Source: a virus
Virus record (IMG/VR): IMGVR_UViG_3300045988_146774
Span: 32,001 to 96,000 of that record
DNA: 64,000 bases
Reading direction: 5' to 3' (one strand)
Shown: positions 10,517 to 60,502 of the stretch, one piece after another
Numbering within the stretch: position 1 is the stretch's first letter
Layout of the letters: every line of letters starts with the position of its first letter
Position numbers and translations under genes: made by a program
The notes under the pieces: generated by a model
What the model was told of the DNA's origin: nothing
Database searches by the model: none
The model's input: only the letters and a program-made list of their open reading frames with translations

Positions 10517-10526
10517 CTCTCCTATT
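10517..10526 (+). promoter_or_regulatory. CTCTYCTATT motif copy
   Basis: Exact CTCTCCTATT, 7 nt after tRNA-Pro. Here it forms the 5' arm of hairpin CTCTCC...GGAGAG. Confidence 0.5.
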
Positions 10527-10538
10527 TCGGAGAGAAAA

Positions 10539-10825
10539 ATGTACGAAAGGAATGAATTACTATTAAAGAAATTAGTAAAAATGATTTAAAAACTCTAGTT
10601 GAGCGTGGAATTATTGGAAGAACTCATGTTAGATCCAATAGTTCAATCGGTGGATATCATTCTTGTGGTTTTTATGATATTGAAAAGTATAAAGACGGGA
10701 AAAAGAAAGAAAAAGGTAATAAGAATTATCTAAAAACTATTTATGCTCATATTGGAGTAGGTATTACCAGAAATCATATCTATATTGAGGATAAATATGC
10801 TGATATGGTTAATGGAATCAAGTAA
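10539..10825 (+). pseudogene. ORF with SD and ATG in one frame and an 89-codon body in the -1 frame (frameshifted gene or programmed frameshift)
   Basis: GGAGAG SD plus ATG at 10539 opens a 16-codon ORF. An 89-codon frame (10556..10825, ...ISKNDLKTLVERGIIGRTH...) has no start codon of its own and overlaps it. Confidence 0.3.
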
Positions 10826-10842
10826 ATAATACTTATAGAAAG

Positions 10843-12288
10843 GTGGTTAGTGCCATCGCTAAGAAAAAGAAAGAATCAATAAAGGTTTCATTTGTAGACT
10901 CACCTTCTTCGGAGGATGTTACAGGGAGCCTTATTTTTATATCTGCACCAAATCATAAAATTCTGGTAGATGCAGGATTACATCAAACAAATGATAGATA
11001 TGAAGATTTCTTGGTGAATAATCGAAAATATAAGGAGTTCAAACCAAAAGAAATTGATTATATTTTCCTGACCCATAATCATGCGGATCATTGCTTATTA
11101 TGCCCTAAACTTTATAAAGAAGGATGTAAAGCAAAAGTCATCGTTACAGAAGGGTCTTCTATCGTATTAAAAGATATGGCTGAAGATTGTGCAGAAATAA
11201 ATGAACGTGATGTTCTTATAATTAATAGTCAGAATGATAAAAATTATTCACCGTTATATGGATTAGATGACGTATTTAATATGATGAATTATGTATCAGA
11301 ATATGAATATGATAAGAAATTTTTCATTGATGATGAATTGTCATTTATGTTAATACCAAGTGGTCATTTGCTCGGGAGTTGTCAGGTTTTATTATTTTTA
11401 ACAGTGAATAATGTTACAAAATCCATTCTGATCACAGGCGATATTGGAAATAAAATAATTGAGAATAGGTTTGTTGGACATTATGAGCAGGTGAGGACAT
11501 GTGATTATGTAATTGCAGAGTCTACATATGGAGATAAACCAAAATTAAAGACAGGCAAAAAAGAGCGAAAAAATGATTTAGAAAAATTTAAATCTATAAT
11601 TGAGACACAGATTCATGAATTAAAAGGTCGTGTTGTAATCCCAAGCTTTGCACAATCAAGAATTCAGCAATTAGCTCTTATGATATATGAAATATATAAA
11701 GATGAAGAGTGGAAACCAAAAGTCTATATAGATTCTCCATTGTCGATTAAAATCTTCAAAGACTACGCTGAATGTTTGGTTGGTAAAGACAAAGAAGACT
11801 TTGACAAAATGTTAGAAAGTGGAATTTTTACTTTTGTGAAAGAACCAGAAGATAGTAAGGCTTTAGTGTCTAGTGATGAATCATGTTTAATTTTATCTAC
11901 AAGTGGTATGTGTCAAGTTGGAAGAATAAGACATCATTTAAAGAAATGTATTGTTGATCCAAATTCGACGGTATTATTTGTTGGATTTTCTACAGAGGGT
12001 TCGTTAGCTTCTCTGTTAAAAGACAATAAAAGGAGAAGCGTCACAATTGATCAAAAAGAATATTCATGTAGATGTTCTTCATATTCATTAAAATCAATGA
12101 GTGGACATGCGCCATTCTATCAGCTTGTAGAAAATTATACAGATATAAATTGTCAAAAAATTATATTACATCATGGGTCAGATCTTGCTAAAAAAACTTT
12201 AAAACCAGCCTTAGAAAAAGAACTGGAAAGAAAATGTAAATCAACAAGAGTTGTAATAGCAAACTCTAGCCTGAAATTTACACTCTAG
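10843..12288 (+). CDS. metallo-beta-lactamase-fold nuclease with beta-CASP-like C-terminal region
   Basis: 481 aa. HNHADH (HxHxDH) motif in FLTHNHADHC, followed by downstream MBL-type His and Asp motifs (SGHLLGS, ...ESTYG, ...HHGS). The architecture resembles RNase J, CPSF or Artemis-like enzymes. Confidence 0.65.
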   Translation: MVSAIAKKKKESIKVSFVDSPSSEDVTGSLIFISAPNHKILVDAGLHQTNDRYEDFLVNNRKYKEFKPKEIDYIFLTHNHADHCLLCPKLYKEGCKAKVIVTEGSSIVLKDMAEDCAEINERDVLIINSQNDKNYSPLYGLDDVFNMMNYVSEYEYDKKFFIDDELSFMLIPSGHLLGSCQVLLFLTVNNVTKSILITGDIGNKIIENRFVGHYEQVRTCDYVIAESTYGDKPKLKTGKKERKNDLEKFKSIIETQIHELKGRVVIPSFAQSRIQQLALMIYEIYKDEEWKPKVYIDSPLSIKIFKDYAECLVGKDKEDFDKMLESGIFTFVKEPEDSKALVSSDESCLILSTSGMCQVGRIRHHLKKCIVDPNSTVLFVGFSTEGSLASLLKDNKRRSVTIDQKEYSCRCSSYSLKSMSGHAPFYQLVENYTDINCQKIILHHGSDLAKKTLKPALEKELERKCKSTRVVIANSSLKFTL

Positions 12289-12300
12289 GAGTAGCTGCCT

Positions 12301-12552
12301 ATGAAAGATAAAAAGTTAATACCATATATATTCGGTCTTATAACTGGTGTCGTATTGTTACCGGTTACAGATGAATTATTAAATGTATTATACTCATGGA
12401 TTGAGGTTATGAAGATCAAACCATCTTCGATTATTGCAAAATGGAATGAAGAAGTCGCATCTAAAAGTGACGGGACTGAACAGACATTTGCAATAGGTTT
12501 TCAAGCACCTGATCCTGAATTAGAAGAATATTATGAAGACGAGGAAGAGTAA
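12301..12552 (+). CDS. small membrane protein with acidic tail
   Basis: 83 aa, one predicted TM segment (IPYIFGLITGVVLLPV). Confidence 0.5.
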   Translation: MKDKKLIPYIFGLITGVVLLPVTDELLNVLYSWIEVMKIKPSSIIAKWNEEVASKSDGTEQTFAIGFQAPDPELEEYYEDEEE

Positions 12553-12558
12553 TTACCA

Positions 12559-12568
12559 CTCTTCTATT
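12559..12568 (+). promoter_or_regulatory. CTCTYCTATT motif copy
   Basis: Exact CTCTTCTATT. It is the 3' arm of hairpin GAAGAGT(12544-50)/ACTCTTC(12558-64), which overlaps the preceding stop codon. Confidence 0.5.
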
Positions 12569-12620
12569 TTTGTATCCGAAATATCGGAAATTCAATGAAT
12601 TAAAAGGAGAAAAATAGATT

Positions 12621-58716: not shown

Positions 58717-58755
58717 GCTAGCTGATTCGCTCCTGTCAAGTTGGGCGGTGGAATT

Positions 58756-59223
58756 ATGAACCGCCGGAGAACAATGCTTATGAATGGACAGGAGGAAGAT
58801 GGAATGAAAGAATGGGGTGAATTGCTGAATGAAAGCAAAGAAGTAACAGACCAAAAGACTGTAGAATTTAATCTTGCTAATGCTGAAAAACATGAGGAAT
58901 ATTGGATATACATACAGATAGAAAAGCATACCGGAGCAGAACAATGTAAAGGTAATTGTAAACCGATAATAAACGGAGCATGGATTGGATATTACAGTTT
59001 TAATGTGGATTTCTCGGGAGACCAGTATGTATCGTATCATATTTGGACAAATCCAATAAGTGTGTTGGAAATGTCGAAAGGTATGAGTAAGCCACAGTTT
59101 AATACTGTACAAATATTAAGACAGATAGAAGCTATTGGAAATGAAACAGGTACAGGAAAATTCGCATTAGAATTTCCAGCAAATTATACGGGAAAGATAA
59201 CAGCAAAAATACTCGGTAGATAG
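58756..59223 (+). CDS. tail-module paralog 2
   Basis: ATG at 58756 (MNRRRTML...KILGR). Only a weak, too-close SD (GGTGGAATT). Confidence 0.55.
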   Translation: MNRRRTMLMNGQEEDGMKEWGELLNESKEVTDQKTVEFNLANAEKHEEYWIYIQIEKHTGAEQCKGNCKPIINGAWIGYYSFNVDFSGDQYVSYHIWTNPISVLEMSKGMSKPQFNTVQILRQIEAIGNETGTGKFALEFPANYTGKITAKILGR

Positions 59224-59238
59224 GAGGTTGAAATAAAA

Positions 59239-59298
59239 ATGGTAAATAGTAAAATCCTAACAGACAGACAGACAGACAGACAGACAGACAGAGCTTAG
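59239..59298 (+). CDS. 19-codon leader ORF containing (CAGA)8
   Basis: AGGAGG SD 11 nt upstream. Peptide MVNSKILTDRQTDRQTDRA, then TAG at 59296. Confidence 0.4.
   Translation: MVNSKILTDRQTDRQTDRA
59261..59292 (+). repeat. tetranucleotide microsatellite (CAGA)8
   Basis: 32 nt of perfect CAGA repeats, read directly. Confidence 0.95.
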
Positions 59299-59341
59299 CT
59301 GATTCTAAATCCTGTGTCAAGTCTGAGATTGCCGTGGGAAT

Positions 59342-59800
59342 ATGTTGAGGCGGCGAATGATGATGGCAAAGGCACAGGAGGTAGAAGAGATGAAAGAATG
59401 GAAAACATTAGATACCGTTGTTCTGGAAGAAGATGCGAAAATTATTACAGTCAAAATTCCAGATGCAAATGAAATAATAGTACTATTCTGTGGGAGAGAG
59501 AACAACGGTGATGATAGCATAAGTGGCACAGGAGTGGGGTCTGATGGACTAAGAATAAATAATAAAGGAGTATCAAATTATCCATTGACATATCTGAGGA
59601 AAGCAGGAAGTGAATATTATACAAAGATTACAGCGGAAATTATAAATGGATTTTTGGATGGAACAATATCAAAAAAAGGAAATAATGAACTTGTAGGATT
59701 TCAAAATCTTTTGACGAATGTAGAATCCATAAAAGAAATATCGCTCGTTACGAACAATTTATTCAAAACAGGCAGTAAAGTAATGGTATTATATCGTTAG
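59342..59800 (+). CDS. tail-module paralog 3
   Basis: 152 aa (MLRRRMMM...VLYR). Weak SD (GTGGGAAT). Confidence 0.55.
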   Translation: MLRRRMMMAKAQEVEEMKEWKTLDTVVLEEDAKIITVKIPDANEIIVLFCGRENNGDDSISGTGVGSDGLRINNKGVSNYPLTYLRKAGSEYYTKITAEIINGFLDGTISKKGNNELVGFQNLLTNVESIKEISLVTNNLFKTGSKVMVLYR

Positions 59801-59820
59801 ATAAGGAGTTGATACAAAAA

Positions 59821-60471
59821 ATGTATGCAAAATTACAATACGGATTCTTGCGCAGTGCACCGAAGACGATTGCGTTTGATGGCAAGACGATAAACAATCC
59901 ATTGCCGGAAGAACTGGAACAGTTAGGATATAAACAGGTGGTGTACACAGATATGCCTACTGGGGTAACAGATGGCAAGCACTGGGAATCTGGATGGACG
60001 GAAGAAGAGAATGCGATTAGGCAGGTGTGGAAATTTGTGGACGATTACGACTTAGAGCAAATCAGAGCTCTTAAGAAAAGTGAAATTTCAGAATCTTGTG
60101 AACAGACAATTTACAATGGAATTGATGTTGAAATGTCTACAGGAACACAACACTTCTCTCTCACTGAAAAAGATCAAATTAATATATTCGGATTACAAGC
60201 AACTATTGAATCCGGTCAAACACAGATTGAATATCACAGTGATGGTAATCCTTGTATATACTATAGTGTTGAAGATATTCAGAAATTAATTGCTGCTGCA
60301 ATGGGATTCGTAAAATATAACACTACATATTGCAATAGCTTAAATGTATGGATTAGCAAAGAAACGAATGCGCAGACAATTAGCGAAATGTATTATGGAA
60401 TGGAAATTCCAGAAGAACATCAATCAGAAGTTCTTAAGAACTATATTAGAATTAAAGCAAAAGATTTGTAA
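59821..60471 (+). CDS. tail-fibre-associated protein with DUF4376-like segment
   Basis: ATG at 59821 after AAGGAG (the track has TTG at 59809). ...LEQIRALKKSEISESCEQTIYNGIDVEMSTGTQHFSLTEKDQINIFGL... resembles DUF4376. Confidence 0.4.
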   Translation: MYAKLQYGFLRSAPKTIAFDGKTINNPLPEELEQLGYKQVVYTDMPTGVTDGKHWESGWTEEENAIRQVWKFVDDYDLEQIRALKKSEISESCEQTIYNGIDVEMSTGTQHFSLTEKDQINIFGLQATIESGQTQIEYHSDGNPCIYYSVEDIQKLIAAAMGFVKYNTTYCNSLNVWISKETNAQTISEMYYGMEIPEEHQSEVLKNYIRIKAKDL

Positions 60472-60492
60472 AAGAGGGCGGTTACTACTGCC

Positions 60493-60502
60493 CTCTTCTA
60501 TT
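60493..60502 (+). promoter_or_regulatory. CTCTYCTATT motif copy
   Basis: Exact CTCTTCTATT. It is the 3' arm of AGAGGGC(60473-79)/GCCCTCT(60490-96), 18 nt before the next start. Confidence 0.5.

Follow-up and report, generated by a model that had tools for sequence, protein, structure and literature searches.

The stretch of DNA analysed here, positions 32,001 to 96,000 of the IMG/VR virus record IMGVR_UViG_3300045988_146774 (64,000 nucleotides (nt), hereafter the window), has a G+C content of about 32% and carries nearly all of its genes on the plus strand. In the intergenic DNA of this strand the ten-nucleotide motif CTCTYCTATT recurs, mostly as the 3' half of a small hairpin, and this element is the subject of the present analysis. 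Judged by its genes, the window belongs to an SPbeta-like temperate phage of gut Lachnospiraceae. The gene order agrees with those of SPbeta and Enterocloster phage PMBT24: the polymerase gene is followed by genes for a YonK/YonJ-like exonuclease (YonJ homologue, E 3e-15), HU, a YonG-like protein, terminase and portal, and then by those for a YonD-like protein, scaffold, YonB-like capsid, tube, a 2301-amino-acid (aa) tape measure and tail proteins. The Pfam families YonG, YonD, YonB, YomW, YomU and YonJ match genes of the relatives, and a megablast search of the window against GenBank phages gave no match. Polymerase homologues were found on 51 IMG/VR contigs, the largest of 205 kb, and also in Lachnospiraceae assemblies, including a prophage within a 421-kb contig of Coprococcus ammoniilyticus.

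Polymerases of the YonO type consist of a single chain related to the catalytic core of the cellular RNA polymerases; their fold family is the double-psi beta-barrel, unrelated to T7 polymerase, and they are thought to resemble the ancestor of the multisubunit enzymes. The candidate member in the window is an open reading frame (ORF) of 870 aa, to which no Pfam family was assigned; PF05183 (RNA-dependent RNA polymerase) matches its homologues weakly. BLASTP against SPbeta YonO aligned its motif DMDSD on DNDGD of YonO, and an hhalign comparison of a profile of eight family members with YonO gave a probability of 85% (E 6e-6, 498 columns). The same profile matched the PMBT24 'RNA-dependent RNA polymerase' (motif DFDGD) with a probability of 98.9%. 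The catalytic motif D-M-D-S-D (residues 578-582) is invariant across the eight aligned members, and YonO and PMBT24 have D-x-D-G-D. Together with its SPbeta-type genomic context, these similarities indicate that the ORF encodes a YonO-family minimal RNA polymerase, in line with the phage-encoded enzyme presumed by an earlier first-pass annotation of this DNA; by analogy with YonO biochemistry (PMC5467207), it would be a DNA-dependent RNA polymerase acting on the late genes.

A scan of both strands of the window for CTCTYCTATT found 13 copies on the plus strand and none on the minus strand. Only 0.55 copies were expected, and none of 100 dinucleotide-preserving shuffles reached 13. When one mismatch was allowed, 26 sites were found versus 14.9 expected, and this small excess implies that the signal resides in the exact word plus its context. 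Twelve of the 13 copies are intergenic, whereas a simple map of ORFs and tRNAs assigns only 14% of the window to intergenic DNA (P ~8e-10), and the first 10.5 kb contain none. The first-pass annotation had listed 12 exact starts, all of them correct, and had missed the copy at 23807. Its statements that the motif is confined to the plus strand and exceeds chance are borne out, the latter more strongly than it had claimed, and the exhaustive two-strand scan it had proposed, run here on the window, revealed no minus-strand copies and no comparable frequency in coding regions (1 of 13 in an ORF). It was mistaken in placing none in an exon, as the copy at 23807 lies inside a 591-aa ORF (23112-24887) and two in-ORF positions are conserved in relatives; the intronic sites it mentioned find no support either, no introns having been found in the window. 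The flanking consensus that it gave, (t)ACT(a)CTCTYCTATT(tt), is upheld by 66 unique contexts.

The polymerase gene, the motif copies and the related hairpins of the window are listed below. Class A denotes elements whose motif forms the 3' arm of the hairpin; stem energies (dG, kcal/mol) and pairing of the window copies are from RNAfold, SD stands for Shine-Dalgarno sequence, and L numbers denote the loci used for comparison.

7417-10029, plus strand: gene of the YonO-family single-chain RNA polymerase, 870 aa, metal-binding motif DMDSD, assigned by BLASTP, hhalign and synteny.
10517-10534, plus strand: motif as 5' arm of CTCTCC-TATTTC-GGAGAG, a hairpin that takes up the SD of a small ORF; dG -8.3. 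It begins 5 nt past tRNA-Pro, and the same layout follows another tRNA in L053.
12543-12568, plus strand: class A element, hairpin GGAAGAGT-loop-ACTCTTCT, then tail; dG -8.0. Its 5' arm overlaps the final codons and stop of ORF 12301-12552.
14127-14167, plus strand: class A element with a 24-nt structured loop, HU gene 38 nt downstream; dG -15.0. An ordinary terminator-like hairpin (about 14050-14110) comes before it.
15464-15473, plus strand: one-mismatch variant, CTCTCCTGTT then TTTT, where a long conserved non-coding spacer ends; L004, L010 and L087 have the exact motif at the orthologous sites.
17981-18003, plus strand: class A element, GGAGAGTG-TAC-TACTCTCC, then TATT; 43.8 bits; dG -9.6. 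It ends 2 nt 5' of tRNA-Tyr.
23055-23085, plus strand: motif in 5' arm and loop, GCCACTC-TTCTATT-GAGTGGT, then ATTTTTGTA; dG -10.2. The arms covary in L070 (AGCACTC/GAGTGCT).
23807-23816, plus strand: in-ORF copy in the YonD-like gene, codons F-S-S-I.
26689-26715, plus strand: class A element directly 3' of the YonB-like major capsid gene, 16 nt before the next start codon; dG -13.9.
31805-31833, plus strand: related hairpin, not the motif proper, GGAGACATAA-TAT-TTATGTCTCC, then TCTTTAATT.
32833-32853, plus strand: motif copy whose pairing partner is the SD (GGAGA) of the holin gene 32858-33160 (SPP1 type); L087, L227 and L228 conserve it.
33878-33912, plus strand: variant hairpin, GGGGAGTAG-loop-CTACTCTCC, tail TGCT.
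34378-34387, plus strand: motif copy in a weak long-range hairpin, 51 nt 5' of ORF 34439-34789, which is followed by an ordinary terminator at 34803.
39171-39192, plus strand: motif copy with TCCTAT paired to an ATAGGA 3' of it, within a 272-nt conserved non-coding spacer.
42340-42410, plus strand: terminator-like variant AGAGCAGT-loop-ACTGCTCT, then TTTATT, with an exact copy in a weak hairpin 30 nt later; both lie at a convergent plus-to-minus junction.
52935-52960, plus strand: variant hairpin, GAGGAGAGT-loop-ACTCTCTC, with no T-rich tail.
54522-54554, plus strand: shifted-register element, 11-bp stem ending in CTCTT, tail CTATTATATA, 5' of a tail-protein gene; dG -16.9.
60473-60502, plus strand: shifted-register element, AGAGGGCGGT-TACT-ACTGCCCTCT, then TCTATT; dG -16.7. 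A start codon follows 17 nt on, at 60520.

Each intergenic copy falls within some hairpin. The view that the motif usually forms the 3' arm holds for eight window copies, six in strong hairpins (12559, 14158, 17994, 26706, 54545 and 60493) and two in weak ones (34378 and 42401); at the other four it is the 5' arm, with the downstream SD as partner at 10517 and 32833 and other partners at 23059 and 39171. The element stems range from -8 to -17 kcal/mol, the same range as the ordinary terminators of the window, and a terminator consensus scan independently calls those at 12543, 17981, 23055, 26689 and 54522 terminator-like. Among the variants proposed in the first-pass annotation, that at 15464 is a one-mismatch copy, those at 33903 and 52951 are related hairpins of ACTCTCC type without TATT, and that at 31824 is a related GGAGAC/GTCTCC hairpin; the variants at 3267 and 10203 fall under the position weight matrix threshold, have no hairpin and are unsupported. 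Its ordinary terminators stand: 24906 and 35534 are confirmed by the terminator scan, and 30941 and 62543 are visible in the sequence.

In its typical form the module reads 5'-GRAGAG(N)-loop-(N')CUCUYC-UAUU(UU)-3', the 10-mer being its 3' half. An unbiased search for perfect GRAGAG-N(3-20)-CTCTYC hairpins, with flanks ignored, found 30 unique cases, of which 26 continue with TATT on the plus strand; the other-strand equivalent occurs in none. A covariance model built from 13 seeds and searched over 1.6 Mb gave 67 matches, every one on the plus strand, and 99.3% of the cells of the resulting alignment are paired (12 G-U cells, 2 unpaired). The closing pair covaries freely (UA 18, CG 11, GC 5, AU 3), and R/Y of stem position 2 covaries as well. 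Since the model itself shaped the alignment, these counts lean towards structure; compensations of the same kind can be read directly from the sequence listings. The tolerance of G-U pairs points to pairing on the plus strand, i.e., in the transcript. The loops measure 3 to 24 nt and the register is variable. At the site after the capsid gene, which is conserved in about 40 relatives and has a positional counterpart in the hairpin that follows the PMBT24 capsid gene, the highly variable loops (8-13 nt) cannot be aligned, and the stem and TATTTT are unchanged even where the portals are only about 50% identical.

Class A makes up about 58% of the unique contexts outside coding sequences (78 intergenic and 12 overlapping short ORFs). 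The minor classes comprise pairing with a downstream SD (10517 and 32833) and shifted registers (23059, 54545 and 60493), and at L228:12607 the motif is fully unpaired and abutted by an unrelated hairpin. Class A tails read TATTTT(N)(N), with 5-6 T per 8 nt and an invariant A at position 2; the U-tract is absent from the tails at 54545, 60493 and 10517. In intergenic plus-strand DNA, CTCTYC is continued by TATT 88 times and by TTTT 19 times (4.6-fold preference), whereas among 696 minus-strand continuations TATT is outside the ten commonest. The variety of registers and the preference for TATT indicate that the linear sequence, including its A, is constrained beyond what pairing or a generic U-tract would demand. 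An Rfam scan of the window found only tRNAs and Fusobacteriales-1, with no family at the motif sites. The latter, a cis-regulatory RNA (RF02920; 73.5 bits against a gathering score of 52.1), lies at 41624-41750 on the plus strand directly 5' of ORF 41786-42349, and the phage relatives are prophages of Lachnospiraceae, not of Fusobacteria.

All hairpin-type elements of the window share the strand of the polymerase gene and lie 3' of it. Counts over the loci fetched with the polymerase give 65 copies for 569 plus-strand genes downstream of the polymerase, 8 copies (none with a hairpin) for 449 plus-strand genes upstream of it, and none for 402 minus-strand genes on both sides; early and minus-strand units have ordinary hairpins in place of the motif. 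Thus the motif is limited to the co-oriented block 3' of the polymerase gene. Class A hairpins start a median of 12 nt past the upstream stop codon (25% at 0 nt), with the next start codon a median of 28 nt downstream. Plus-plus junctions contain the element in 70 of 978 cases, plus-minus junctions in 9 of 163 (several of them ORF-calling artefacts) and minus-plus junctions in 1 of 147. No motif follows the terminators at 24906, 30941, 32208, 34803 and 35534. The capsid, scaffold, terminase and portal genes come after ordinary terminators with neither a motif nor room for a promoter between, so their polymerase must read through hairpins. Two of the ordinary terminators, 24906-24961 and 30941-31002, have near-identical tails and leaders, GGTCTTTTTTATTG(T/C)AAAAAA..TAAT(C/T)AAGGAGGAAAT, and form a second repeated intergenic module. 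Long non-coding spacers at 15085-15505, 39076-39347 and 51313-51603 are conserved in distant relatives and have predicted structure (39171, z = -5.0); they may represent small RNAs ending in a hairpin. The SPP1-type holin gene at 32858-33160 stands amid the structural block, far from any recognisable endolysin of the window.

At 10 unique tRNAs the motif ends 2-9 nt upstream. This adjacency is not specific to the motif, because almost every first tRNA has some hairpin upstream, and it was therefore rejected as evidence for a promoter. In all loci, nearly all first tRNAs are preceded at 2-10 nt by a stable hairpin with a short tail, whatever its sequence (e.g., 10317-10347 before tRNA-Met in the window, L054:1077 and L057:6946), and families of such stems recur: GAGTGTGTGG.../...CACACACTC, AAGAGTCATTTC.../...GGCTCTT and ATCAGC-TAGTTAGTGCTTTAT-GCTGAT. 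Homology breakpoints are also enriched at the element, with 53 one-sided pairs versus 8 at in-gene control positions; in 43 only the downstream flank is shared and in 10 only the upstream flank, most of the former coming from the variable nuclease slot described below. As the control positions lie within genes, the enrichment may merely reflect gene boundaries, and it looks like a consequence of the placement of the element rather than of its function.

The relatives add 226 exact copies and none on the minus strand: 66 in polymerase loci, 140 in portal loci (portals 49-98% identical) and 20 in loci fetched with a 689-aa protein. About two thirds of the unique contexts are intergenic, although the ORF model assigns 84% of the sequence to coding regions. 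Most in-ORF contexts are two orthologous positions of the YonD-like gene that encode (F/Y)SSIS (23807 and 24566 in the window, L060:12508 and 13204), the second of which fits the extended consensus AACTACTCTTCTATTTC. At these sites TCT TCT ATT is invariant (25-38 sequences), and other Ser codons of the gene vary. We regard the conserved in-ORF copies, with some reservation, as coding coincidences, and the copy at 23807 is probably one. Internal promoters were rejected, since the peptide (F/Y)SSIS and codon bias suffice to account for the copies and a strong terminator lies 3' of the gene.

Polymerase identities as low as about 65% go with an unchanged motif; around the most distant homologues (49-64%), the 20-kb samples contain it rarely or not at all, and a de novo k-mer search found no alternative motif there. 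In the late region of PMBT24 no motif is repeated, the terminase, capsid and tail genes being followed by ordinary hairpins only, and an nhmmer search of the whole SPbeta genome with the motif profile gave nothing significant, including the bracket that holds the YonO start site. The published start (B. subtilis coordinate 2225998) could be placed only as this bracket between two primers; it contains a GGAGA/TCTCC hairpin (TGGAGA-TTCC-TCTCCA) and a pyrimidine-rich stretch, whose resemblance to the motif was not counted. The bracket hairpin belongs to an unannotated 1.7-kb stretch between yonN and yonK of SPbeta (L052 14154-15834, minus strand), which is the non-coding RNA of PMC5467207. Among the matches listed in a scan of IMG/VR with the hairpin-plus-TATT pattern, many are probably due to chance.

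The surroundings of the polymerase gene vary among the relatives. In many of them (L026-L030, L034-L037, L040, L042, L044, L045 and L047-L049) the gene is interrupted by an insertion of 0.3-1.2 kb, perhaps an intron or intein, the match spanning 3.0-3.8 rather than 2.6 kb; in L246, a LAGLIDADG ORF splits the homologue of the window ORF 28213-29502. Just 3' of the polymerase there appears to be an interchangeable nuclease slot, which among 60 sequences holds a beta-CASP/RNase J-like metallo-hydrolase in 16, PIN-PhoH in 22 and neither in 22, the two never occurring together (window 10843-12288, plus strand; L249:6866-8104; polymerase loci L001-L051). A beta-CASP RNase as the required reader of the element was rejected, as the motif is found equally in relatives with beta-CASP, with PIN-PhoH and with neither.

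Covariation, G-U tolerance and the U-rich tail point to RNA and therefore favour a terminator or processing signal over a plain double-stranded DNA promoter. We tentatively read the element as a terminator or attenuator-like punctuation signal of the late transcription unit, acting on the RNA, and consider this the likeliest of the readings, at somewhat less than an even chance. A G+C-rich stem would form in the nascent late transcript, and stem and U-rich tail together would pause or partly release the polymerase, which would define the transcript boundaries and the dosage of the genes within a very long co-directional operon. The near-invariant stem and the A of UAUU, where generic terminators of this genome have UUUU, imply a sequence-specific reader; the obvious candidate would be the phage's own polymerase, since a flap-less enzyme may need a dedicated signal. 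That the element is a cis recognition signal of the YonO-type polymerase, be it a promoter or a dedicated hairpin-plus-sequence terminator, is again a possibility that we put a little below even. The stable G+C-rich stem-loop on the sense strand (-8 to -17 kcal/mol, nearly all positions paired) is that of an intrinsic terminator, and the 7-11 bp stems, U-rich tails, matching energies and usual placement within 15 nt of a stop codon resemble Firmicutes terminators and attenuators. Unlike in those, the stem sequence and the tail A are kept across non-orthologous sites and distant relatives, the element is confined to one unit, in long spacers it adjoins the downstream gene, and a U-tract is missing from some copies. 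A generic terminator explains the hairpin and tail, but not the fixed stem, the A of TATT, the restriction to one unit or the registers that do not terminate.

Several observations weigh against termination by the element. The copies at 10517 and 32833, whose 5' arm pairs with an SD, and those at 54545 and 60493, whose tails are not U-rich, cannot terminate. With an A at tail position 2, a classical terminator should lose strength, and many elements are followed by essential genes with no room for a promoter in between, so that termination could only be partial. In spacers of at least 100 nt, 14 of 17 elements adjoin the downstream gene or tRNA, and where a spacer is shared with an ordinary terminator, the order is terminator then motif in nine cases and the reverse in one, an arrangement that is promoter-like or leader-like. 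Moreover, the late genes of SPbeta are transcribed by YonO as one operon with little pausing (PMC5467207).

The placement of the element next to downstream genes is what a promoter for the YonO-type polymerase would predict, the duplex ACTNCTCTYC-TATT being read directly, with a G+C-rich core and an A+T-rich melting or start region, and the upstream complementary arm being a terminator or insulator hairpin that evolved to overlap it. As with T7-group promoters (~23 bp, co-oriented), many identical intergenic copies of about 14 conserved nt begin just 3' of the polymerase gene and join a G+C-rich core to TAT(T/A). The linear sequence is retained across hairpin registers and in the unpaired copy at L228:12607, which fits reading at the DNA level; the stretches 34378-34803, 23059-24906 and 14158-15202 look like moron-type units of motif, gene and terminator, and the sharing of downstream flanks only exceeds that of upstream flanks. 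The YonO promoter was left undefined in 2017 (PMC5467207), and our literature search found no later description of it. Nevertheless, we consider a promoter rather unlikely. A duplex needs neither covariation nor G-U tolerance, and the hairpin is kept even where an ordinary terminator already lies 5' of it. The element is nearly absent from minus-plus junctions, where plus-strand units must start, and the copy at 42401 points into convergent genes. Transcripts initiated at TATT or beyond it would begin with a U-rich stretch, and there is no fixed purine position 3' of TATT. The single YonO promoter of SPbeta and the lack of a repeated motif in PMBT24 caution against many promoters; over the range down to about 65% polymerase identity the constant motif gives no signal of co-variation, and the capsid, terminase and portal genes lack a motif behind their ordinary terminators. 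T7-group promoters, besides, serve a polymerase of unrelated fold and have no covarying inverted repeat upstream. The promoters of the N4 virion RNA polymerase share with the element a conserved sequence in a small hairpin and a phage-encoded enzyme, but their hairpins, with 5-7 bp stems and 3-nt loops, lie on the template strand at a fixed distance from the start, whereas here loop and register vary and the G-U pairs point to the non-template or RNA strand. Class II termination or pause signals of T7 (ATCTGTT) illustrate the idea of a conserved linear sequence that a phage polymerase would read as a stop or pause, and there as here a U-rich stretch follows; they need no hairpin, are few per genome and are unrelated in sequence and polymerase family.

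An element of mRNA processing or stability would equally act through a hairpin in RNA, and we hold it to be unlikely, slightly more so than a promoter. The hairpins would mark and protect the ends of segments cut from the late transcript, as 3' stabilisers of the upstream segment, as 5' stabilisers of the downstream one against a 5'-exonuclease, or both, with cuts made near UAUU by an endonuclease of the host or the phage, or by RNase P where a tRNA adjoins. The element adjoins the downstream cistron; at first tRNAs, where 10 of the hairpins contain the motif, RNase P would leave a hairpin-capped 3' end, and at 10517 a cut by RNase Z would leave the downstream RNA with the hairpin close to its 5' end. 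Hairpins stand on both sides of the scaffold-capsid segment (24906 and 26689), and an RNase-type gene occupies 38 of the 60 slots next to the polymerase. A stabiliser, however, has no need of a particular stem sequence or of U residues behind it, and paired and unpaired copies of the motif could not both be recognised by one sequence-specific nuclease. Since the motif is indifferent to the content of the slot, none of the phage nucleases varies along with it. For RNase III, which takes ~20 bp or more of irregular duplex, the stems (7-11 bp) are also too short. That the element has no dedicated reader is improbable in our view. Ordinary terminator hairpins would then be alike by descent and modular recombination, as linkers, or through common purine-rich GGAGAG/GAAGAG arms. 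Breakpoints are enriched at the element (e.g., L009 vs L010, and window 34378 vs L227, where homology starts ~11 nt 5' of the motif), the 5' arm is often coding (GAA GAG TAA) or SD-like, the late stem-loops of SPbeta likewise tend to AGAG/CTCT stem bases, and the ordinary terminators 24906 and 30941 share tails too. Yet in phages whose portals are about 50% identical the loops randomise and the exact 10-mer is kept at many sites that are not orthologous, TATT is strongly preferred to TTTT after the stem, the minus-strand and early units, which need terminators as well, lack the element, and gene boundaries alone may account for the enrichment of breakpoints. The boundary mark of mobile cassettes, one of the candidates in the first-pass annotation, looks like a by-product; of its other candidates, those acting on the transcript are favoured over the promoter. 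PeSL cassettes of T4-type phages and the linkers of modular evolution are similar in having a short conserved intergenic stem-loop at mosaic gene boundaries. PeSLs carry a host sigma-70 early promoter; the motif described here has no sigma-A-type promoter and marks late, not early genes. Least probable is a DNA operator, a stoperator-like roadblock bound by a phage regulator such as the tyrosine-recombinase-like protein encoded at 16709-17680. Stoperators of Cluster A mycobacteriophages and the SPBRE/MrpR system of SPbeta offer many asymmetric, transcription-oriented intergenic copies in temperate phages, the master repressor of SPbeta, a protein of integrase fold, binds to an element that is repeated (PMC10516654), and a Phage_integrase protein is encoded within the late block. 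But these are duplex operators without hairpin covariation, which leaves the covariation and G-U tolerance of the element unexplained, and SPBRE lies in early promoters (PMC10516654), not in the late block, the one transcription unit to which the element is limited.

Conserved intergenic hairpins, promoters of phage polymerases and sequence-specific terminators are known kinds of signals. New here is a covarying hairpin with a sequence-fixed 3' arm and tail, limited to the block of a YonO-type polymerase and conserved across a large gut-phage family; no cis signal, promoter or termination, of the YonO family was described in the literature searched. The phage family is common in human-gut metagenomes and has prophages in Lachnospiraceae, and more than 200 copies of one oriented, hairpin-linked sequence lie in the block that its polymerase should transcribe. 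Even if the element is only a conserved terminator family, it would still comprise clear sequence-constrained terminators specific to one unit and serve as a landmark for annotation. If it is recognised by the polymerase, it would be the first defined DNA or RNA signal for the YonO-type polymerase family, and these phages would divide their late 'super-operon' into polymerase-specific units.

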